Shown here piece after piece: positions 53,473-64,000 of a DNA stretch of 64,000 nucleotides (positions are counted from its first letter, which is position 1; every line of letters starts with the position of its first letter). Where the stretch lies: assembly GCA_963827275.1 (NCBI GenBank), contig CAWHAA010000001.1:64001-128000 (forward strand), in the 5' to 3' direction. The notes under the pieces were generated by a model that was not told the origin of the DNA, searched no databases, and saw only the letters and a list, made by a program, of their open reading frames with translations. The DNA is from an uncultured Spirochaetota bacterium (GTDB lineage Bacteria > Spirochaetota > UBA4802 > UBA5550). The translations under genes and the position numbers were made by a program.

Positions 53473-55173
53473 TCACCTGCGCTTCAGGAGACGGATCGTG
53501 ACGTCAAACGAGAGGTATGCGTCGTTCTTCTCGCCGATCACGGTAAGATCGGTCATCATGTTCACGATGCCGCTGATCTCCTTGTTCCGGTAGGAGTAGA
53601 GCATCAGGAGGGCGCCGAAAAAACTCTCCTTTTTCATGTGGGCAAGGCAGAATACATTTCCCCCCAGCCTGTTGAGCACGCTGTCCGCGGGCTGCGGTTT
53701 TGTAAGCTCTTTGCCCGCGAGCGCCATGCCGATCAGCTCCCTGTCGTTTCCCAGGTAGAGGCCGCGCCGGTCGTAGAGCATGTGGACCCTGTTGTTCTTT
53801 GAGTCCACATGCCAGAAGGAGCGCGCGCCGCCGATCATGTCCGTACCGAAGCGCTCCGTGCCCTTGAATTTTTCCCTGAGATAGGCCGAGGACTTTTCCC
53901 ATACGGCCCTGCCCTTCTCGGGATCGTTCATGGGGAGAAAGAAAAGGTATCCCCCGCCTCCACCCTTCGGCTCGCCCGCAATGATGTTCACGACGCCGCT
54001 GTGATACGGGACCACGTCCGTTTCAAAATCAATGCCGAGGTCCTCGCGCACCTCATCCTTGAATTTCGCGTAGTAGCCGCAGCCGGCGGCGGATTTCCGG
54101 CAAAGCTCCCCGATCTTGTCGAAGTCGAACGACACATACGCGTAGGTGCTCGCGTTAGTGACAAGGAGCGCCCGGTCGGAAACGCCGGTCCTGATAACGT
54201 CAAGGAACGTGTTCACGCTCCCGCTGGCGCCGTTGAAACGCGCCGCTATATCGATGGTCACCGCCGATGGCGTGACCGACGCCCCCAGGGAGACGTAATC
54301 CACCGCGTTAAAGGGGGACGGACCGGTCGTGAGCCGGTCAAGCTCGGACTTCATGGAAGGTTTTCCTCCCGCCGCGTCGGCGATGTACGCAACATCCATC
54401 AGCGCGGCCGCGCCCATCATGCCCGCGTCAGTCACCTTGTTTTGGCCTCCCTTCGGCTGCTCGCCCTCCGGCCGCGGACGGCGCTTCACCGCTTCTTTCA
54501 GATAATCCCTGGTGGCATAGGCCCGCAGGTCATAGTTCCTGCTTAACCGGGCGGAATAATCCATGTACTTCGGGTCGATAGCGAGATAGCCGGCGCTGTT
54601 CTCCTTCACGTCAATCACGCCCCGTATCAGCTCACCGGTGGACCCTATGATGAAGACGCCATCAATCGCCGTGGTGAAGATGTCCTTGTGGCTCTGGTAA
54701 ATCGGGCGGCCTTTATACTCGGTTATGGCGGGATACAGGTCAGCATTTTCGGCGTTGGCCATCTTCCTGAGAATCTCGACAAACTTGAGGGGAAAGATCT
54801 TGTCATCCATGACCGGGATGAACAGGAGCACCCGCTCCTCATTGCGCTTGCCCCTCGCGTATACCGCCACGCTCGCGGAACGGTCAACGTCGATGCCGGC
54901 CTTTTTCAACGCCTCGATGTCAAGGGGATCGATCCCCGTTTTGGTCCTGATATCGTCCCTCTTCTTGTTGAATTTCTCGACGTATTCACGGTGGAGAAGA
55001 TTTTCAGATACGAATTTCACTGACCCGACGAGGTTCTTGATGCGGGCGGTTTTCATGAACAAGATCGCCGACGAGGGGGTGATCGATTCAACGATATCAG
55101 CCCGGTCCTGGGTGTAGCCGCCGGTAACAAGCGCAAGAGACAGGACCAGCGCGAGGGGTACGATGTTTTTCAT
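53473..55173 (-). CDS. Exported hypothetical protein
   Basis: Signal peptide, GGAG RBS, 566 aa. Confidence 0.75.
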   Translation of the reverse strand: MKNIVPLALVLSLALVTGGYTQDRADIVESITPSSAILFMKTARIKNLVGSVKFVSENLLHREYVEKFNKKRDDIRTKTGIDPLDIEALKKAGIDVDRSASVAVYARGKRNEERVLLFIPVMDDKIFPLKFVEILRKMANAENADLYPAITEYKGRPIYQSHKDIFTTAIDGVFIIGSTGELIRGVIDVKENSAGYLAIDPKYMDYSARLSRNYDLRAYATRDYLKEAVKRRPRPEGEQPKGGQNKVTDAGMMGAAALMDVAYIADAAGGKPSMKSELDRLTTGPSPFNAVDYVSLGASVTPSAVTIDIAARFNGASGSVNTFLDVIRTGVSDRALLVTNASTYAYVSFDFDKIGELCRKSAAGCGYYAKFKDEVREDLGIDFETDVVPYHSGVVNIIAGEPKGGGGGYLFFLPMNDPEKGRAVWEKSSAYLREKFKGTERFGTDMIGGARSFWHVDSKNNRVHMLYDRRGLYLGNDRELIGMALAGKELTKPQPADSVLNRLGGNVFCLAHMKKESFFGALLMLYSYRNKEISGIVNMMTDLTVIGEKNDAYLSFDVTIRLLKRR

Positions 55174-55421
55174 GATGTTCTCCGTTATACTATAGCATGA
55201 TGCCCGCCCGGGGGCAGCAACGGCCGCCCGGGCAGGTCACGGTATACTAGAAGGCCGGCCGCATGGCAAGTAAAAAAGTCAATGCCGCCTGCCCTGACGG
55301 CACCTGCCGCCGGGGACGGAAAAATAAAAAAACAGTTGAACAAATACCCCGGTAGTATGAGATACGTGATGTCCCGGAGGAGAATAACCCGTTTCATTCC
55401 CATCACAACCTGGAGCATGTC

Positions 55422-56615
55422 ATGAGCGGCGTCGAAATCAAGAAAAGCTACGAAGAGATCAACAGGAAGATACAAGAGGGGAAGGCCGTTGTCGTGACCG
55501 CGGAAGAGATGCCGGAAATCGTGGCCTCCGAGGGCGTTGACGGCGCTTTTAAAAAAGTTGACGTGGTCACCACCGGCACCTTCGGTGCCATGTGCTCTTC
55601 CGGCGCGTTCATCAATATCGGTCACACGAAGCCGCGGATGAAAGCGACGAAGGTATGGTTCAACAACGTGGAAGCCTACGGCGGCATCGCCGCGGTGGAT
55701 TGCTATATCGGCGCCACGCAGGTGCAGGAGAACGATCCGCTGAACATGGTCCATCCCGGGAGATTCAAATACGGCGGCGGCCACGTCATAGAGGACCTGA
55801 TAGCGGGGAAGAGGATCAAGCTCAAGGCCGTCGGGTACGGTACGGACTGCTACCCGCTGAAGGAATACGAATCGACGATCACCATCGATGACCTGCGCGA
55901 CGCCACGATGTTCAACCCGCGCAACTCCTACCAGAATTACAACTGCGCCGTGAACCTGTCGAAGAAGACCATCTATACCTACATGGGAATACTGAAACCC
56001 GATATGGCAAACGCATCATTTTCGAGCGCGGGCCAGCTCAGCCCACTCCTGAACGACCCCTACTACTGGACCATCGGCACCGGCACGCGGATATTCCTCT
56101 GCGGCGCGGCGGGCTCGGTGGTGTGGCACGGCACCCAGCACGCGCCGGACTGCAGGCGGGGAGAGAACGGCGTCCCCTGCGAAGGGGGCGGCACCCTCGC
56201 GGTCATGGGCAACATGAAGGAGATGGACCCCCGGTACGTGCGCGGCGCCTCCTTCACCGGGTACGGCTGCAGCATCATGATCGGCATCGGCATCCCCATC
56301 CCGATAATTAACAGGGACATGGCCTATTTCACCGGCCAGACCGACAGGGACCTCCGCTGCCAGGTCATAGACTACGGGAACGACTACCCGTCCGGGATCG
56401 GCAGGTCCCTGGGCGAGGTGAGCTATGCCGAGCTGAAAAGCGGCAGGATAGCGTTCATGGGAAAAACAATAGACGCGGCGCCCATGTCGAGCTATCCGAT
56501 GGCGAGGAAAATAGCCATTGAATTGAAAGAGTGGGTCAAGAAGGGCTTCACCATCGGCGTGCCGCAGACGCAATTCCCGACAGTGCCGCGCGGGAAGGAC
56601 AATGAAGCGCGCTGA
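55422..56615 (+). CDS. DUF39 homocysteine biosynthesis protein (aspartate semialdehyde sulfurtransferase-like)
   Basis: AVVVTAEE, VDVVTTGTFGAMCSSG, YGGGHVIEDL, GTDCYP, GQLSPLLNDP. Confidence 0.9.
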   Translation: MSGVEIKKSYEEINRKIQEGKAVVVTAEEMPEIVASEGVDGAFKKVDVVTTGTFGAMCSSGAFINIGHTKPRMKATKVWFNNVEAYGGIAAVDCYIGATQVQENDPLNMVHPGRFKYGGGHVIEDLIAGKRIKLKAVGYGTDCYPLKEYESTITIDDLRDATMFNPRNSYQNYNCAVNLSKKTIYTYMGILKPDMANASFSSAGQLSPLLNDPYYWTIGTGTRIFLCGAAGSVVWHGTQHAPDCRRGENGVPCEGGGTLAVMGNMKEMDPRYVRGASFTGYGCSIMIGIGIPIPIINRDMAYFTGQTDRDLRCQVIDYGNDYPSGIGRSLGEVSYAELKSGRIAFMGKTIDAAPMSSYPMARKIAIELKEWVKKGFTIGVPQTQFPTVPRGKDNEAR

Positions 56616-57319
56616 GCGGTCATACCGTGATTACGCGGATACGGCCCGGTGGAAAAGCTTCAGGGTCAAAGTCGAGACATCAGACCTGTACATCAGGGCG
56701 GGCTCCGACCTGTCGGACCGGGCGGAGCGGACCGTGCGCGGACTCAGGGACCAGATCTTCCGTCACATCGCGCGCCAGAACGAATTCCTGACCTCATATA
56801 CGCCGGTGGAGCGCCTGACCGGATGCGCCCCCGTCATCGACATGATGTATGACGCTTCCGAACAGGCCGGGGTGGGCCCCATGGCCGCCGTCGCCGGCGC
56901 CGTGGCGGAATGCACGGGGCGGGAGCTGATGGATGCAAGCGGCGAGCTGATTATCGAAAACGGCGGCGATATATGGATGCGGATAACCGATCCCGCCTCT
57001 ATACGCATATATCCGGGAGGACATAACTTCGACGCCGTATCGATAAAAATCAGTCCCGATCGCACGCCCTGCGGGGTCTGCACGTCATCCGCGCGGATCG
57101 GCGTCGTCCTTCAGCTTCGGCAAGGCGGACGCCGCCACCGTGATCGCGCCCGGCGCTGCCCTGGCTGACGCGATCGCCACCGAGGTATGCAACCGGGTGA
57201 AAGTCGAGGACGACATGGAAGGCGCCGCCCTCTTCGGCATGCGGTGCGGCGCATCCGGCGTCGTCGTCATATACCGCGACCGTCTTGCGGCGCAGGGCGA
57301 TGTAGAGCTGACAGATTAA
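56602..57319 (+). CDS. UPF0280 ApbE-like protein (frameshift near 57105)
   Basis: GPMAAVAGAVAE, ENGGDI, GVCTSS|SFSFGKADAATV..LADAIAT. Confidence 0.88.
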
Positions 57320-57333
57320 CGTGGAGAACAGCC

Positions 57334-57753
57334 ATGAACGCAAAAAACGTGCTTCTCATATTCGACAAGAAGATCATGTACAAGCCGCTCATATTCCGCC
57401 TGGCAAAGGATTTCGATGTCGTCTTTAACGTGCTCGAGGCGAAAATCCTTCCCAAGCTTGAGGGCCGGCTCATCCTTGAGCTCCGCGGCACGGAAGAATC
57501 AATCACGACGAGCATTGACTACCTGACCGGAGAAGGTGTGGTGGTTGAGCCGCTTACCGACAAGATCGTCAGGGACGATGACCGCTGCATCAACTGCGGA
57601 GCGTGCACCTCGGTCTGCCGGGTGGACGCCCTCAGTATTGATCGCGTCTCCATGGAAGTAACGTTCGACCACGAGAAGTGTGTTGCCTGCGGCATGTGCA
57701 AGATTGCCTGCCCCGTGGGTGCGATGTCGGGGAAGAGTATCGATCTGGATTGA
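57334..57753 (+). CDS. NIL domain-4Fe-4S ferredoxin
   Basis: KPLIFRLAKDFDVVFNVLEAKI (NIL), CINCGACTSVC, CVACGMCKIACP. Confidence 0.9.
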   Translation: MNAKNVLLIFDKKIMYKPLIFRLAKDFDVVFNVLEAKILPKLEGRLILELRGTEESITTSIDYLTGEGVVVEPLTDKIVRDDDRCINCGACTSVCRVDALSIDRVSMEVTFDHEKCVACGMCKIACPVGAMSGKSIDLD

Positions 57754-57854
57754 CCGATAACTATCGGTGCCAGGTGGGGTCAGAGTAAGCAGTTTACCGA
57801 TAACTATCGGCACCGGCAGGGGGTCAGAGCAGTTAATGTACCGATAACTATCGG
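57753..57854 (+). repeat. Second bipartite array: 3x ACCGATAACTATCGG alternating with 2x GGGGTCAGAG(T/C)A
   Basis: Palindromes at 57753, 57796 and 57840; G motifs at 57777 and 57820. Confidence 0.95.
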
Positions 57855-57902
57855 CATTTCAAAGGCTTATTTCCCCCTTGATGTCCTGTAACCCCCTTAA
57901 AC

Positions 57903-59096
57903 CTATATAATCCCCAGCTTTTTGCCTACTTTTTTGAAAACCTCAAAGCTCCGGTCAAGGTCCTCGGTCGTATGGGTAGCCATGACACCGAGCCGAATTC
58001 GCGATTCAGCCGGCGGCACTGCCGGGTGCACGATGGGCGAGGCGAAAACCCCTTCGTCGAAGATCATCTTGTTAAACATCATGGTCTTTTCCAGGTCGCG
58101 AATCAGGAGCGGCACCACGGCCGTCCGGGAAGGACCGGTATCGAATCCCAGCTCTTTCAGTCCCTTGATAAAGTAGTTGATGTTGTTCCAGAGCCTCTCC
58201 CGCCACTCGGGCTCCTCATCAAGCAGTTCAAATGAACGGCATATGCCGGCCACCGTCAGGGGCGGCAGGGACGCGGAGAAGATATAGGCGGACGCGTTAT
58301 GGCGCAGGTGATCGATGAAATCGGCCGGTCCTGCCACGAATCCGCCGACTGCGCCGGCGAACTTCGAGAACGTCCCCGCTATGACGTCCGGCGCATGCGG
58401 CATGTCGAAATGGTCAGGCAGGCCGTAGCCGCGCTTGCCGAGAACGCCCAGGCTGTGGGCTTCATCGATGAGAAGGAGCGCCCCGTGCTCCTGCTTGATG
58501 CGGTACAGCGCCGGAAGGTCGGCCCAGTCGCCGTCCATGCTGTAGACGGAGTCGACCAGGACGAGCATCCTGTTGTATTTATTCTTGAGGCGGGCAAGGA
58601 GCGAATCAAGGTCCTCGGTGTCGTTATGAAGCCACATTCTCTTGTCGCTGCCGGAAAGGGTCACGCCGTCAACGATGCTCCGGTGCACCAGGCTGTCCAT
58701 CACCGCCACGTCTCCCTTGCCGATGGTGGCCTGTATCGAGCCGAGAAGCGCCTGGTACCCGCTTGCCAGGAGAACGCACGCTTCGCGCTCATACAGACGC
58801 GCTATTTTTTCCTGTAATCTGTAATGGATATCGGTGGTGCCGCAGGCCAGCGGCGAGCCGCCGATGCCGAGGCCGTATTTGTCAATGGCGTTCCGCACGG
58901 CCTTCAACACTTCCGGGTGGGTGGAGAAGCCGAGATAATTATTGGAGATAAAATTGATGCGCTCCTTGCCGCTTACCACGATGCGGTTCGCGCAGGCGGA
59001 AGAGACCTCAAGGCTGTACGTGTATATCTCCTCTTTTCGCAGCATCGACAGGAGCGCCGCCTGCTGCTTCATGGCATCGCTAATGAGTTGGCTCAT
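57903..59096 (-). CDS. PLP-dependent alpha-oxoamine synthase (serine palmitoyltransferase-like)
   Basis: SNNYLG, HRSIVDG, VYSMDGD, DEAH, GTFSK (PLP Lys), YIFSASLPP. Confidence 0.9.
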   Translation of the reverse strand: MSQLISDAMKQQAALLSMLRKEEIYTYSLEVSSACANRIVVSGKERINFISNNYLGFSTHPEVLKAVRNAIDKYGLGIGGSPLACGTTDIHYRLQEKIARLYEREACVLLASGYQALLGSIQATIGKGDVAVMDSLVHRSIVDGVTLSGSDKRMWLHNDTEDLDSLLARLKNKYNRMLVLVDSVYSMDGDWADLPALYRIKQEHGALLLIDEAHSLGVLGKRGYGLPDHFDMPHAPDVIAGTFSKFAGAVGGFVAGPADFIDHLRHNASAYIFSASLPPLTVAGICRSFELLDEEPEWRERLWNNINYFIKGLKELGFDTGPSRTAVVPLLIRDLEKTMMFNKMIFDEGVFASPIVHPAVPPAESRIRLGVMATHTTEDLDRSFEVFKKVGKKLGII

Positions 59097-59146
59097 GGAA
59101 TAATCCTCGCAAAATAAAATCGTACAACAATCAGGGCGTGCCGGTG

Positions 59147-59395
59147 TCAGGCCAGCTTTTTCTCCAGATATTGAATGACATCAATCACCGTCTGGAGCCC
59201 CATGATTTCATCAAGGTCCGGCTCAAAATCGTATATCTCGGTTATCCGTGAAATGGCTTCCATGCTCTTGAGGCTGTCGAAGCCCAGGTCCTCAAGGAAC
59301 CGGTCGCCATCCTTTACCTGCTCCGGTTTTTTCCCCGCCAGTTTGGCTACGATGGCCAGGAAATCTTTTCTTATCTTATCCCCGGAAACTCCCAT
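59147..59395 (-). CDS. Acyl carrier protein
   Basis: EDLGFDSL phosphopantetheine motif; GAGGTG RBS. Confidence 0.92.
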   Translation of the reverse strand: MGVSGDKIRKDFLAIVAKLAGKKPEQVKDGDRFLEDLGFDSLKSMEAISRITEIYDFEPDLDEIMGLQTVIDVIQYLEKKLA

Positions 59396-59526
59396 ATGTG
59401 TCACCTCTTCATGATGGTACGCCTTCACCGCAACGGCCGGACACGCCTCGCCGTCACATAATGGATCACGCGGTAATATTTACAATGAATTTTTAGCGCA
59501 GCGCCGCTATTCCATGCTGACCGCAA

Positions 59527-61353
59527 TCAGCGCTTCAATCGTCTTCGGAACAGGTGGAAATGGCTCAGGATGAAAGTCCGTGCCAGCACAAGAATATTCC
59601 TGCTTTTTCTCGGGAACAGCTCTCCCTCGAGGTAAAATCTCTTGCACAGATACCGCTGGGTCTTGCCGCTCGTGGTCTTCGGTATCGTCTCGCGCGGGAC
59701 AAGCCTGATATCGTCAGGCGCAATGCCGAGCTTCGCCAGTATCTCTTTGTGGACTTCCTGCTTCAGTTTTTCAAGCGCCTCCCTGTCCTTTACGGTCGTT
59801 TCGCATACCAGCACGAGGTCTTCGGTACCCTGCTCCTCGTTGTGCACGTCAAATGCCGCGCAGCAGCCGAGACGGATCCCCTTGACGGTTGAAGCGATCC
59901 GCTCCACGTCATAGGGATAAATGTTTTTCCCGCGCTTGATGATCATCTCCTTCTTGCGGCCGGATATGAAAAGCAGGCCGTCAAGGATAAATCCCATGTC
60001 CCCCGAATGGAGCCAGCCGTCAACGATGGATTCAGCAGAGGCCTTCTGATTTTTATAATACCCGCCCATGAGGCTATGGCTCTTGACGCATATTTCACCG
60101 ACCTCGCGTTCGTTGAGTGTCCGGCCCTGCTCATCGACGATCCTGATCTCCTGCCCCACGAGCGGATAGCCGACGGAAACCAGATCGATGTACTCCTTGT
60201 TGTTCTGGCTCTTTGAATCGACGGCGATATTCTCGGCTTCCAGCTTGTCCCTGTCGAAACGGCGGACAACGGTGGTCGCATCCAGCGAAGGAAATGTCGC
60301 GGCAAGGCTGTTTTCCGCCATCCCGTACACAGGGAGAAATATATTGTCGCGAAGGCCGCACGGCCTGAATTTTTCAATGAATTTATTGAGGGTTATGCGG
60401 TCCACCGGCTCCGCACCGTTCAGGGCAAGCCGCCAGGAGCTCAGGTCAAGCCGGTGGAGGTCCACGTCGTCAATCCTCGAAACGCAATAATGGTATCCGA
60501 AATTGGGGGCCACGCCCATCGTGACCCGGTAGCGCGATATGTTTTCCATCCACCAGATGGGACGAAAGATAAACGCTTCCGGCGACATCAACACAAGGGT
60601 GATGTCCCAGTACAGGGTGGTGAGAAAACCGCCGATAAGGCCCATGTCGTGGTACATGGGAAGCCAGCTGATACCGACATCATCGGCCGTCATCCGGCTT
60701 GCGACCCCGATCCCGTGGATGTTATGAAGCAGATTCTTGTGGGAGAGCATGACCCCTTTCGGTTTTCCGGTCGTACCCGAGGTGTACTGGAGGAGCGCAA
60801 GGTCATCGGTCCTGACGACGGGACACTTTTTATACTGATCTGCAGGGACGGGATCGGCGAATATTTCATCATCAAAAAGAAAACCGCCCACCAGGTTCGA
60901 AATATTCAAGAGACTGCCGGCTATCAACTTGATCTTTTCGTAGGTTATGAAGAATTTCCCCTCGCAGTCATGGATGATATGCGTCAGGTTATCAAGGTAT
61001 TTCGCGAGGTTGCTCGTACCGGCCGGCTGGCTGACCGGGACAGGGACACCGCCGGCGATGAGTATTCCAAAATAGACATAGGCGAAATGTTCCCCCGTAG
61101 GCAGCATTACAACAACCTTATCATTCTTACCGAGGCCCCGCGCCATCAGGTACTGGGCCACGACACGCGCCTTTTCCAGTACATCGCTTGCCGAGACCCT
61201 CTGCTCACGATTTTTAAGATCCATGAAGATAAGAAAATCCGGCTTATCAACAGCCCGGCGCTCAAGGACCTCGATAAGGGTCTGTGCCCTGATTTCATAT
61301 CTTTCACTGTTTTTCTGATGCGCTACGATTTGTTTCCCTGTTACCGCTGTCAT
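59527..61353 (-). CDS. Fatty acyl-AMP ligase
   Basis: QYTSGTTGKPKG, SWLPMYHDMGLIG, NGAEPV, YGMAE followed by a FAAL-type insertion, PKTTSGK. Confidence 0.9.
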   Translation of the reverse strand: MTAVTGKQIVAHQKNSERYEIRAQTLIEVLERRAVDKPDFLIFMDLKNREQRVSASDVLEKARVVAQYLMARGLGKNDKVVVMLPTGEHFAYVYFGILIAGGVPVPVSQPAGTSNLAKYLDNLTHIIHDCEGKFFITYEKIKLIAGSLLNISNLVGGFLFDDEIFADPVPADQYKKCPVVRTDDLALLQYTSGTTGKPKGVMLSHKNLLHNIHGIGVASRMTADDVGISWLPMYHDMGLIGGFLTTLYWDITLVLMSPEAFIFRPIWWMENISRYRVTMGVAPNFGYHYCVSRIDDVDLHRLDLSSWRLALNGAEPVDRITLNKFIEKFRPCGLRDNIFLPVYGMAENSLAATFPSLDATTVVRRFDRDKLEAENIAVDSKSQNNKEYIDLVSVGYPLVGQEIRIVDEQGRTLNEREVGEICVKSHSLMGGYYKNQKASAESIVDGWLHSGDMGFILDGLLFISGRKKEMIIKRGKNIYPYDVERIASTVKGIRLGCCAAFDVHNEEQGTEDLVLVCETTVKDREALEKLKQEVHKEILAKLGIAPDDIRLVPRETIPKTTSGKTQRYLCKRFYLEGELFPRKSRNILVLARTFILSHFHLFRRRLKR

Positions 61354-61615
61354 TTACATATCCTGTTTGATTTAATAATATTAATTGTTAAACAATGCAT
61401 GAAAAATCTCATACCGAATATTCAACAACATTATGAACAAATTTATTTGGCATAAAACAAAAGCTGAATCTGCTCCCATATAAAATATGAAGCGTTAACC
61501 ATATCATCCTGATACCACATCAAGATTTAAATACAATATAAATGTTACCATCCACAGAACAACGGGGAGGGAAACAGTGAAATACTATTTTGCGAAAGAG
61601 AACATACTATTATAA

Positions 61616-61631
61616 TGCAATTATTATGCCA
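61616..61631 (-). promoter_or_regulatory. Sigma54 (-24/-12) promoter facing the FAAL-ACP-SPT operon
   Basis: Minus strand reads TGGCATAATAATTGCA (TGGCA-N6-TTGCA). Confidence 0.7.
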
Positions 61632-61896
61632 AATAGTTTTTTTATTATTGTATAACGCCTGATATATAGAGACAGTATGATTGACCGAAAAATATCAAAG
61701 AAGATCATATCAGAACTCGAAAAAAATCAACACCCTGTATCATATATGCAACAAAAAATGGACCTGAAACTGAAATTTTATAATATATCAAATGGCGCTT
61801 AACATGAAATGAGCACGGGAATATTCTTATTGACATTGACTCTGAAAAACAAATTCTCTACTTTCAATTATTTATTATTATTTTCGGGGGAATGGA

Positions 61897-62745
61897 ATGG
61901 GCAGTCACGATGACAAAATATTATCAAACAAACTGGCTATAATTACCGGCGGTTCAAAGGGGATAGGGAAAGCCGCTGCAATTGAATTTGTCAAAAACGG
62001 CGGGAACGTCTGCATTATTGCCCGTAATAAAAAAGACCTCTTCCAGGCAGCAGAAGAGATGCAAAAAGCCCGCTCCAGCACCAGCCAGGCCGTCACCGCT
62101 ATCCCTTGCGATACCACGGACATGGAAGCACTCGCTCGACTCCTCGACAGCTTCATTAAAAAAAACGGAGTGCCGGATTACCTTATGAATTTTGTGGGGT
62201 ACGCCAGGCCCAATTACATACAGAACACCACGCTCGACGATTTCAGAAAAATAATGGATACCAACTATTTCGGACAGCTTATCCCGGTCCTGGTCATCCT
62301 GCCGCACTTCATGAGAGAACGGAAGGGGCACATCGTGAACTGCTCATCGTTGCTTGGTTTCATGGGAATTGCCGGGTACGCCGCCTATTCCCCGACAAAA
62401 TACGCACTATGCGGTCTCACCGAATCACTCAGAAACGAACTCAAGCCGTATAATATACGTTTCTCCATTCTTTATCCGCCCGATACCGAAACCCCCGGAT
62501 TCGACCAGGAAAACAGGTCCAAGCCGCTCGAGGTTATGCTCATGTCCGAAACAGGCGGGCTTCTGTCGCCGGAGCAGGTCGCCAAAAAATTAATACATGA
62601 TGTTCTTAAAAATAAATACTATATACTGCCCGGCCAATCACGGCTCCTCTGGTCTATAGCGCGGCATTTTCCACGGCTCGCGCATATCATTATGGATGGC
62701 GAGCTGAATAAAGCGAGAAAAAAGGCTGCGGCAAGAAAGAAATAA
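61897..62745 (+). CDS. SDR oxidoreductase, 3-ketodihydrosphingosine reductase (KDSR)-like
   Basis: TGGSKGIG, YSPTK, and YPPDTETPGFDQENRSKP signature. Confidence 0.85.
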   Translation: MGSHDDKILSNKLAIITGGSKGIGKAAAIEFVKNGGNVCIIARNKKDLFQAAEEMQKARSSTSQAVTAIPCDTTDMEALARLLDSFIKKNGVPDYLMNFVGYARPNYIQNTTLDDFRKIMDTNYFGQLIPVLVILPHFMRERKGHIVNCSSLLGFMGIAGYAAYSPTKYALCGLTESLRNELKPYNIRFSILYPPDTETPGFDQENRSKPLEVMLMSETGGLLSPEQVAKKLIHDVLKNKYYILPGQSRLLWSIARHFPRLAHIIMDGELNKARKKAAARKK

Positions 62746-62782
62746 CCGATCTGCCTTTCCAATACATGCAGACGTATCGCAC

Positions 62783-62816
62783 AAAAAAGAGGCCCCCGTT
62801 AGTAACGGGGGCCTCT
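62783..62816 (-). terminator. Rho-independent terminator after fcpA
   Basis: AGAGGCCCCCGTTA-G-TAACGGGGGCCTCT preceded by an A run. Confidence 0.85.
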
Positions 62817-62844
62817 GCTCTCAACAATAATCGAAAGACATATA

Positions 62845-63720
62845 TTATTTGAAGTCGTTAATACGCTCGGCTTTCTTCTCATCCTGCTCGACAACTTCCT
62901 GCATCTGCTTATAATGAGGTGACTCGATCCCATACTTCAGCTCAACCGCCTGGAGCATGCACCGGTTCTTCTTGTTTTTATATATGTTGATCTCATCTTC
63001 AGATGCATGCTTGTATTTCGCCAGCACCTTCTCCATGTAACCATAGCAGCTTGCCATATATTTATACGCCCAGATGTCCTTGCTGTTCTCTTCGGAAATG
63101 CTCAGGTATCTCTCCAGGATGGCGATACACGGCTTAAAATTCTGGAGATCATACTGGGTGGATACATATACCTGGAAGAGGCGGCTCATAAAATTGACGA
63201 ACTTGGGTTCCTGCCTGACCTCCTGGTGCTGAATCTGATCAAGATAGTCGATGGACCGCGTCAGGTAGGTGACCGATTTCATCTTGGCTTCCATTTTTTT
63301 CATGGCGACCTGGCGCTGCTCCTGGTTCTTACGGTCAATCTCCTGCCAGTACCACCGCTCGTTCAGGTTCTTTTTCTCCTTGTTGGCGGCCTTGATCTTT
63401 ATGACGTCATTCTCCATGTCTTCAAGAATATCAAGCGCGGTTGAATATTCATCGATCGCGAGCTTTAAGAGGTTGTCGGAATATTCCTTGTTAAGTTTTT
63501 CAAGCTCCTCAATCGCCTTGATATAGGGCTTGAAATCCCGGATCCTCCATCCGGTAACCTCAACATCGCTGAATTCATTTTTCAGTTCGGCGGCTTTTTT
63601 ATCATCCGTTTTCTTGTCAGCTGCCTGCTGCGCAGAAATCCGGGATTGCATCCCGAGGCCGAGGAAAACAGCCGCTACCAGGACAGCAATTATCACGCCA
63701 TACGACTTTCTTGGTTTCAT
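62845..63720 (-). CDS. fcpA: Flagellar coiling protein FcpA homologue
   Basis: Signal peptide; ERWYWQEIDRK, QYDLQN..CIAILERY, KYMASCY and ELKYG..SP.YK match Leptospira FcpA as recalled. Confidence 0.8.
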   Translation of the reverse strand: MKPRKSYGVIIAVLVAAVFLGLGMQSRISAQQAADKKTDDKKAAELKNEFSDVEVTGWRIRDFKPYIKAIEELEKLNKEYSDNLLKLAIDEYSTALDILEDMENDVIKIKAANKEKKNLNERWYWQEIDRKNQEQRQVAMKKMEAKMKSVTYLTRSIDYLDQIQHQEVRQEPKFVNFMSRLFQVYVSTQYDLQNFKPCIAILERYLSISEENSKDIWAYKYMASCYGYMEKVLAKYKHASEDEINIYKNKKNRCMLQAVELKYGIESPHYKQMQEVVEQDEKKAERINDFK

Positions 63721-64000
63721 ACAGTAACCCCTCTCAGCATAATGAATCGGACCATGGCGGCACAAAAATATCCAAGTGCAACGCCACACATTAATATCGT
63801 CATAATTATGGTAAAAATTCAATTTTTTTCTTACTTTTATCTATATTATAAAAATAAAAAAGTCCCCTGCCCGACTCAGATGAGACAAACACAGGCCGTG
63901 ACTTTCTTTCAAAATCATCGATGATATCCCACGATAAATTTTGTTGACATTATCGTATGATTATTAAAACCTAAATTCAATATCAGATATTCCATGAAAA

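Follow-up and report, generated by a model that had tools for sequence, protein, structure and literature searches.

A candidate ceramide synthesis locus with an acyl-ACP feed and a KDSR-family reductase in an uncultured spirochaete

INTRODUCTION

Which lipid would be made by a spirochaete locus in which a fatty acyl-AMP ligase (FAAL), an acyl carrier protein (ACP) and an alpha-oxoamine synthase (AOS) stand beside a short-chain dehydrogenase/reductase (SDR) resembling 3-ketodihydrosphingosine reductase (KDSR), the second enzyme of eukaryotic sphingolipid synthesis? The locus lies in a 64,000-nucleotide stretch of DNA from an uncultured Spirochaetota bacterium (GenBank assembly GCA_963827275.1, contig CAWHAA010000001.1, positions 64,001 to 128,000), which we call the window and whose own numbering we use. 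A first-pass annotation of the window had proposed that these genes make sphinganine or a related long-chain amino alcohol independently of coenzyme A (CoA), with reduction preceding N-acylation as in eukaryotes. Our analysis indicates that these genes probably carry out the opening steps of sphingolipid synthesis, leading to dihydroceramide, and that the locus represents a credible new variant of bacterial ceramide synthesis. The individual steps are predicted from homology and gene context. The genome is a metagenome-assembled genome (MAG), 92% complete with 3.9% contamination (labelled G000), and comparisons were made within a set of 41 related genomes which are kin and not independent samples, including 16 congeners.

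RESULTS

Gene content of the locus

The first-pass annotation had described a co-directional FAAL, ACP and AOS with a divergent SDR, and all four open reading frames (ORFs) are present:

57903-59096, minus strand: AOS, 397 aa; Pfam Aminotran_1_2 (PF00155), 189.8 bits
59147-59428, minus strand: ACP, 93 aa from a GTG start; Pfam PP-binding, 42.3 bits
59527-61353, minus strand: FAAL, 608 aa; Pfam AMP-binding, 231 bits
61897-62745, plus strand: SDR of the KDSR/TSC10 family, 282 aa; Pfam adh_short, 149.7 bits

The co-directional genes are closely spaced, with 98 nt between FAAL and ACP and 50 nt between ACP and AOS. An internal ATG, 11 codons downstream of the GTG, is an alternative start for the ACP.

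The synthase probably groups with serine palmitoyltransferases

The highest-scoring NCBIfam model for the AOS is that of CFB-type serine palmitoyltransferase (SPT; NF047600, 382.4 bits, cut-off 640), and the SPT models NF047599 and NF047603 give 321.7 and 243.3 bits (cut-offs 500 and 670). In the PDB, the best match is the SPT of Sphingobacterium multivorum (319.5 bits, residues 13-393), followed by BioF/Kbl-type enzymes (268 bits), two cysteate-C-fatty acyltransferase structures (227 and 205 bits), the Sphingomonas SPT (220 bits) and CqsA (88 bits).

The structures of the S. multivorum enzyme (PDB 3A2B and 8GUH), as described in PMC10196870, name the residues that surround pyridoxal phosphate (PLP) and L-serine. 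In our alignment the AOS is identical to it at Asn52, Tyr54, Gly80, Ser81, His138, Ser185, Asp210, Ala212, His213, Thr241, Ser243, Lys244, Ser273 and Ala274, and has Ile in place of Met271; counted over 13 named active-site residues, 12 are identical. In the acyl wall it differs at Phe83 and Leu84, which are replaced by Leu and Ala. The AOS is a fold-type I PLP enzyme, and its catalytic set, K245, H138, D211 and H214 (K244, H138, D210 and H213 of S. multivorum SPT), is invariant across an alignment of 14 sequences; these are, respectively, the PLP lysine, the histidine stacking on PLP, the aspartate to N1 and the histidine to O3'. Every AOS enzyme has this catalytic set, which therefore does not tell SPT from its relatives. 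The matched active-site residues, too, are mostly common to the whole AOS family, and they mark a working enzyme rather than specificity for serine. Since the contacts to the serine side chain are reported to run mostly through water or the main chain (PMC10196870), the sequence cannot decide between serine and alanine or glycine. The predicted activity is the condensation of L-serine with a long-chain acyl thioester.

The relationships of the AOS were then taken from a tree of 74 rows, built by a quick IQ-TREE search with SH-aLRT support only. Its rows were relatives of the window AOS, cross-phylum homologues, AOSs of other Leptospirales families, and outgroups labelled by NCBIfam cut-offs. 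The outgroups came from a generic AOS-motif scan of contigs which returned at least 80 loci, mostly BioF, Kbl and ALAS; 39 of 80 were classified and about 27 loci went into the tree, one (L049) being dropped for internal stops. The window AOS falls in a clade of 24 rows, here called type A (support 99), which lies inside a 49-row clade (support 98). The larger clade also holds a CFB-type SPT that passes its model cut-off, three alphaproteobacterial SPTs, two AOSs adjacent to genes for bacterial ceramide synthase (bCerS), and the AOSs here called type B, which come from other families of the Leptospirales. Outside it lie the sequences of BioF (support 92), Kbl-like (97) and Kbl (99) enzymes. 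Type A is sister to, rather than nested within, the clade holding the characterised SPT types, and the window AOS lies outside the CFB clade. The best PDB match and the position in the tree thus bear out the description of the synthase as SPT-like.

AOS genes of two further kinds were encountered. 'Type C' paralogues of 429-445 aa with an N-terminal extension (L151-L156, from G001, G016, G008, G006, G028 and G027) occupy three separate places in the SPT-containing clade; they are found in some congeners and in other families, and none is present in the window genome. In addition, a MAG labelled Nitrosopumilus, a thaumarchaeon, carries an AOS (L060, 7845-9137) scoring 564 bits on the CFB-type SPT model; the gene might be SPT-like and truly archaeal, or its contig might have been binned wrongly.

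A dedicated acyl-ACP supply

The best NCBIfam match of the FAAL is 'fatty acyl-AMP ligase' (NF006624; 436 bits, cut-off 600). When the Caulobacter acyl-ACP synthetase AasR was used as the query, the window FAAL was the best match genome-wide, at 263 bits (31% identity over 522 aa, E 1e-86), and the next match scored 76 bits. The translated ACP carries a DSL motif with the serine for phosphopantetheine attachment, and all NCBIfam models of housekeeping ACPs fall below cut-off on it. In all 10 related loci the ACP gene separates those for FAAL and AOS.

In Caulobacter, AasR acylates the dedicated carrier AcpR and not CoA, and across the alpha-, beta- and gamma-Proteobacteria spt is said to occur with the full AasR/AcpR/Spt trio (both as described in PMC9386255). 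By score and gene order, the window FAAL is a specific AasR homologue, accompanied by a dedicated ACP and an SPT-like gene, and it is reasonable to expect that it transfers acyl-AMP to ACP rather than to CoA. The resemblance of FAAL and ACP to the AasR/AcpR supply is in keeping with the CoA-independent feed proposed in the first pass. The same cannot be said of the view that the FAAL-ACP-SPT triad is eukaryote-like, as this tripartite arrangement has already been shown in Proteobacteria.

A KDSR-family reductase, probably in place of CerR

For the SDR, NCBIfam offers only a generic SDR name. Among PDB structures it is closest to TSC10, a 3-ketodihydrosphingosine reductase of fungi (8jat; 114.9 bits, residues 12-244), and the alignment takes in the C-terminal stretch PPDTETPGF..ENRSKP. 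As a control, the next-closest SDR paralogue in the genome (35% identical) does not have TSC10 among its matches at E<=1e-22. The ESM Atlas clusters nearest to the SDR are automatically named '3-dehydrosphinganine reductase family', which is also the JGI name for many close relatives. The KDSR signature claimed for this protein is therefore well founded, and its position as divergent neighbour of the operon recurs in 8 of 10 related loci. None of the sequence-level observations named in the first pass as refuting its proposal was made.

The Rossmann motif TGGSKGIG occupies residues 17-24 of the SDR, and because it begins at residue 17 there is no room for a signal peptide; the N-terminus has no visible terminal membrane anchor. 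The Caulobacter reductase CerR is reported to be periplasmic (PMC11087976, PMC11324152). With CerR (CC_1164) as the query, no homologue was found in any of the 41 related genomes at E<=1e-15, the best match in G000 being a generic one of 43 bits. The same query does detect a CerR-like gene beside an AOS-bCerS pair at a more distant locus (L150). Conversely, the window SDR had no match in any of three alphaproteobacterial SPT genomes at E<=1e-25. The distributions of KDSR-type reductases and CerR are complementary in the genomes searched and, judged by homology, a KDSR-family SDR stands here in place of the Caulobacter-type CerR.

A ceramide synthase homologue elsewhere in the genome

The first-pass annotation saw no ceramide synthase, and indeed the window contains no bCerS-like gene; the genome, however, does. 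As a query we used the Caulobacter CerS (CC_1154) orthologue, picked by its position beside LptF2/G2. In the locus recovered from the Caulobacter genome spt, acpR, cerR and aasR are adjacent and the CerS gene stands beside this second LptF/LptG pair, exactly matching the CC_1154-CC_1165 arrangement as described in PMC11324152. The sole match in the window genome is end to end, at positions 144482-145606 of contig C7 (28% identity over 381 columns, E 3e-44), and the encoded protein has a weak GNAT match in Pfam. Its neighbours are not sphingolipid genes but encode a 392-aa protein of unknown function, a short SDR and an aminotransferase; these were not counted as pathway genes because they are not conserved beside bCerS in G021. 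Also beside the C7 gene, an EF-G-like gene is present as two overlapping ORFs (L131, 11882-13991), one with the GTPase domain and one with domains II-V, which suggests a frameshift or an assembly error.

The C7 bCerS has matches in 29 of the 41 related genomes. In 7 of 16 congeners (G001, G004, where it is in two pieces, G010, G011, G012, G015 and G016) the gene directly 3' of the AOS is a paralogue sharing 36-39% identity with the C7 copy, which gives the order FAAL-ACP-AOS-bCerS with the SDR divergent. The window genome does not have this AOS-adjacent paralogue. The C7 type is the copy conserved across the order, and is also the type found in bCerS-SDR-AOS operons (52-53% identity). Given the genomic bCerS and the AOS-adjacent paralogue in congeners, N-acylation and hence ceramide would be expected, and the likely product is dihydroceramide, not only sphinganine.

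The reduce-first order proposed in the first pass does not follow from the sequence data; finding a KDSR where Caulobacter has CerR is suggestive at most. Sequence alone does not reveal whether reduction comes before or after N-acylation, a point that is openly debated for bacteria (PMC11087976).

The pathway we propose would thus run as follows. The AasR-like FAAL would adenylate a free long-chain fatty acid and load it on to the dedicated ACP without CoA, and the SPT-like AOS would condense the acyl-ACP with serine (or alanine or glycine) to a 3-keto long-chain base. The 3-keto group would be reduced by the cytoplasmic KDSR-family SDR, presumably with NADPH as cofactor, as a sequence rule would have it. 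A bCerS-type GNAT N-acyltransferase, encoded on C7 here and by the paralogue after the AOS in many congeners, would add the second chain.

Distribution in the order and beyond

Orthologues of the type A AOS are present in 20 of the 41 genomes (G000-G016, G019, G021 and G022). Strong bCerS matches are found in 18 of these 20, the exceptions being G003 and G022, and an SDR orthologue in 17, the exceptions being G004 (79% complete), G021 and G022; in place of the orthologue, G021 has a 36%-identical relative elsewhere in the genome. Among the other 21 genomes, eight have a type B AOS, all of them together with bCerS and SDR, and in 11 no match to bCerS or the SDR passed the search thresholds. The remainder are G033, with bCerS and SDR and no AOS found, and G036, with the SDR only.

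In G039 and G034, from another family of the order, bCerS, a KDSR-like SDR and a type B AOS are consecutive on one strand. The AOSs of these operons score 486-502 bits on the CFB SPT model, ∼130 bits above other models. The G034 SDR is 38% identical to that of the window and has the same C-terminal motif, with TSC10 as its second PDB match.

Outside the Spirochaetota, type A AOS homologues of 50-64% identity occur in Desulfobacterales, Myxococcota, Acidobacteriota and Clostridia. A delta-proteobacterial MAG retains the order FAAL-ACP-AOS. In two Myxococcales MAGs, FAAL and ACP are followed by genes for a B12-radical-SAM and an acyl-CoA-dehydrogenase-like enzyme and then by the AOS, with a bCerS-like gene nearby; this insert between ACP and AOS (L143, 3719-6962, and L145) suggests a modified (methylated or unsaturated) acyl chain. 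More distant AOSs adjoin bCerS (L149) or bCerS and CerR (L150). In 13 of 61 loci an AOS is found near a relative of the SDR (two Leptospirales, one Spirochaetaceae, six Bacteroidota, two cyanobacterial and two alphaproteobacterial), in one case 7 kb away. The one Bacteroidota AOS tested among these is of SPT type (395 bits, against 225 for Cfat). At the cyanobacterial loci L202 and L204, FAAL, AOS and KDSR-like SDR are clustered, and the L202 AOS is fused or extended to 556 aa.

Relatives of the reductase in Asgard archaea

The nearest named relatives of the SDR outside the Leptospirales are from Asgard archaea (Promethearchaeota, Lokiarchaeia), with 53-59% identity. Loci from Asgard MAGs (L161-L174 and L211; Promethearchaeota, Sigynarchaeota and Hodarchaeota) encode proteins 48-55% identical to the window SDR. 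An SDR tree of 60 rows was made by a quick search and rooted on the genome's own SDR paralogue; its loci were fetched with an Asgard query and 14 of 61 were left out, so the sampling is biased. In this tree the 10 Leptospirales SDRs that accompany type A AOSs group together (support 99) and, unexpectedly, nest in a clade of 22 rows, the remaining 12 of which are Asgard sequences (support 99; 98 when the Sigynarchaeum row is excluded). Other families of the Leptospirales have SDRs that fall elsewhere, among those of other bacteria. In which direction any transfer went hinges on how the tree is rooted.

The Asgard gene is repeatedly flanked by genes for a FabG-like SDR, a thiamine pyrophosphate-dependent enzyme and a protein resembling NAD-kinase/diacylglycerol-kinase. 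Our literature search found no paper linking Asgard archaea with KDSR. It is conceivable that the pathway is a hybrid, with a bacterial acyl-ACP feed and bCerS, reduction of free 3-ketosphinganine before N-acylation, and a reductase acquired from Asgard archaea; taken as a whole, we regard this scheme as rather unlikely.

Flanking and non-coding features

Two non-coding features accompany the genes:

61354-61896, no strand: divergent intergenic region between FAAL and SDR, 543 bp, AT-rich
62788-62816, no strand: GC-rich hairpin, likely a terminator, between the convergent SDR and FcpA-like genes; 13-pair stem with 9 GC pairs, then a T run

The GC content of the 543-bp spacer is 0.39-0.42, compared with 0.55-0.60 nearby. 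Promoter-like hexamers in 57600-63000 number 10 against 5.9 +/- 2.5 in shuffled sequences, which is not clearly above chance; the strong hairpin apart, the search for terminators likewise gave nothing clearly above shuffled sequences. An Rfam scan of 55000-64000 matched no family.

Beyond the hairpin, 62845-63822 on the minus strand encodes an FcpA-like flagellar coiling protein (NCBIfam 197 bits, below the cut-off of 400), of a kind typical of Leptospirales, which adjoins the SDR in relatives too. On the other side, at 55422-57753 (plus strand) and convergent to the AOS, are genes for HcyBio (a COG1900-type homocysteine sulfur-incorporation enzyme, 506 bits), a 188-aa protein and a NIL-domain ferredoxin, whose position is kept in 9 of 10 related loci. 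This group probably belongs to amino-acid metabolism unrelated to the locus.

DISCUSSION

Weighing the alternatives

Several observations weigh against reading the locus as the start of a sphingolipid pathway. The AOS reaches the cut-off of no NCBIfam SPT model, and its margin over the bioF and Kbl-like models is 28 bits. The AOS tree was made up without rows for cysteate acyltransferases, CqsA or eukaryotic enzymes, and in an approximately unbiased (AU) test the alternative that holds type A with BioF and Kbl is borderline and not quite rejected (delta lnL 25.3, p 0.0503); because of this, the phylogeny by itself does not settle the AOS as an SPT. The bCerS gene lies on a different contig from the locus. 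In G022 (96% complete, from a related genus) the trio FAAL-ACP-AOS is present (L019, contig C2) and neither SDR nor bCerS was found; there the trio may work with other partners. KDSR-like SDRs, 34-38% identical to that of the window, also occur in three spirochaete genomes in which no SPT or bCerS was found; a MAG that bears the label Leptospira biflexa (G046) holds an SDR of 38% identity, but neither SPT nor bCerS was found in it, so it provides no cultured organism for a test. The KDSR-like SDRs of Asgard archaea are also without the synthase, 13 of 13 loci having no AOS, bCerS or FAAL within 8 kb. Finally, the flanking FcpA-like and HcyBio genes are conserved as well as the SDR in the 10 related loci, and since these unrelated flanks are equally conserved, synteny within the genus is weak evidence.

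The end product might instead be a free long-chain amino alcohol which is not N-acylated: sphinganine or, with alanine or glycine as the substrate, a 1-deoxy or 1-desoxymethyl base. In that case the GNAT on C7 would serve some other purpose. The AOS-adjacent bCerS paralogue of 7 of the 16 congeners is indeed absent from the window genome, whose C7 gene is without sphingolipid neighbours. Moreover, SPTs are described as taking alanine and glycine at low efficiency (PMC10196870), and 1-deoxysphingolipids as abundant in anoxic waters (PMC11334938). Yet the C7 type is the order-wide copy and the one that occurs in bCerS-SDR-AOS operons, and it is distributed in parallel with the SPT-like gene and the SDR, so that we consider a free base an unlikely end product. 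We give very little credence to a housekeeping role for the AOS, as BioF in biotin synthesis or as Kbl in threonine catabolism, with its neighbours there by coincidence. It is the sole AOS of its genome, the BioF and Kbl-like models come within those 28 bits of the SPT model, JGI calls relatives 'BioF' or 'Kbl', and the AU test is borderline; against this, the BioF, Kbl-like and Kbl clades lie outside that of the AOS, FAAL and ACP keep their linkage to it in all 10 related loci as well as in three from other phyla, and bCerS is adjacent in congeners. A function in biotin synthesis was rejected because neither bioB, bioA nor bioD was found above cut-off in the 92% complete genome.

Two other classes of product have to be considered. 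Cysteate-C-fatty acyltransferases are relatives of the AOS, as the PDB scores of 227 and 205 bits indicate, and the capnine pathway also uses an SDR-type reductase; the AOS might then condense cysteate with acyl-ACP to the base of a capnine-type sulfonolipid, with the SDR as dehydrocapnine reductase. The match to SPT is much stronger at 319 bits, and no cysteate synthase was found above cut-off in the genome, the best score being 57.5 bits against a cut-off of 324.9 for a model of the methanogen type. Both results weaken this possibility, which we judge to be very improbable. Somewhat less remote, and still improbable, is a specialised metabolite or signal (an alpha-aminoketone, a hydroxyketone or an amino-polyketide starter) rather than a membrane lipid. 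FAAL-ACP-AOS cassettes do occur in natural-product clusters, the cyanobacterial L202 and L204 combine FAAL, AOS and KDSR-like SDR, and the Myxococcales type A loci include radical-SAM and acyl-CoA-dehydrogenase-like enzymes. In the window, however, Pfam and NCBIfam scans found no polyketide synthase, non-ribosomal peptide synthetase or tailoring genes around the locus, CqsA is distant at 88 bits, and the locus is conserved across the whole genus and beyond with bCerS co-occurring. Synthesis of a ceramide-type lipid therefore remains our preferred explanation of the locus.

Comparison with known systems

A close parallel in organisation is Caulobacter crescentus (AasR CC_1165, AcpR CC_1163, Spt CC_1162, CerS CC_1154, CerR CC_1164), where, as proposed here, an acyl-ACP synthetase and a dedicated ACP feed SPT, and a bCerS of the GNAT type is present in the genome. 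The window SPT, in contrast, belongs to a different clade, with 33% identity to Caulobacter Spt; in place of the NAD-epimerase-family CerR, which was found in 0 of 41 genomes, the locus has a classical KDSR-family SDR; and bCerS is unlinked in the window genome. Bacterial SPTs resembling the window AOS are soluble homodimers. Bacteroides thetaiotaomicron has such a soluble CFB-type SPT relative (BT_0870) with an SDR resembling yeast TSC10 and human KDSR (BT_0972); the SPT and reductase genes are unlinked there, and there is no FAAL/ACP feed. BT_0972 reduces 3-ketodihydrosphingosine in vitro, so that KDSR activity in a bacterium has already been shown (PMC9278070). The eukaryotic SPT-KDSR-CerS (Lag1) route shares with the window a reductase of the KDSR/TSC10 family. 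It differs in that the window SPT most resembles the soluble bacterial enzymes, the window acyl donor is probably acyl-ACP rather than acyl-CoA, the N-acyltransferase is a bacterial GNAT and not Lag1, and the window SDR is without a visible N-terminal membrane anchor. Within the same bacterial order, the operon of G039 and G034 has the same three enzyme classes as the window genome and the same KDSR-like subfamily motif. Its SPT, however, is of type B (type B AOSs score 486-524 bits on the CFB model), there is no FAAL or ACP, and its SDR falls in another clade, whereas the window combines a type A SPT, FAAL and ACP with an SDR of the Asgard-like clade.

The novelty of sphingolipid synthesis in this lineage is less than the first-pass annotation implied. 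Bacterial KDSR activity is in print, and so are Spt-like genes from MAGs of 38 phyla, among which Spirochaetota may be included (PMC11334938); the same paper raises the non-homologous replacement of CerR or bCerS as a possibility. Our literature search brought up no study that connects SPT or bCerS genes with Spirochaetota, subject to that reservation about the 38 phyla of PMC11334938.

Implications

Searches for bacterial sphingolipid producers, as described in PMC11334938, have been keyed on Spt, bCerS and CerR, and they could misjudge lineages in which a KDSR-type reductase does the work of CerR. The FAAL, ACP, SPT-like AOS, KDSR-like SDR and bCerS make up a compact, testable five-gene set, which bears on the question, as debated in PMC11087976, of whether reduction comes before or after N-acylation in bacteria. 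A further outcome is a separate SPT-like clade whose members are associated with FAAL and ACP in several anaerobe phyla. The affinity of the reductase with those of Asgard archaea, if it holds when eukaryotic sequences are added, bears on how the eukaryotic pathway arose: were eukaryotic KDSR to fall in the Asgard-Leptospirales clade, the reduce-first step of eukaryotes would trace to the archaeal host lineage. For the organisms themselves, the locus predicts ceramide-type lipids in uncultured Leptospirales.

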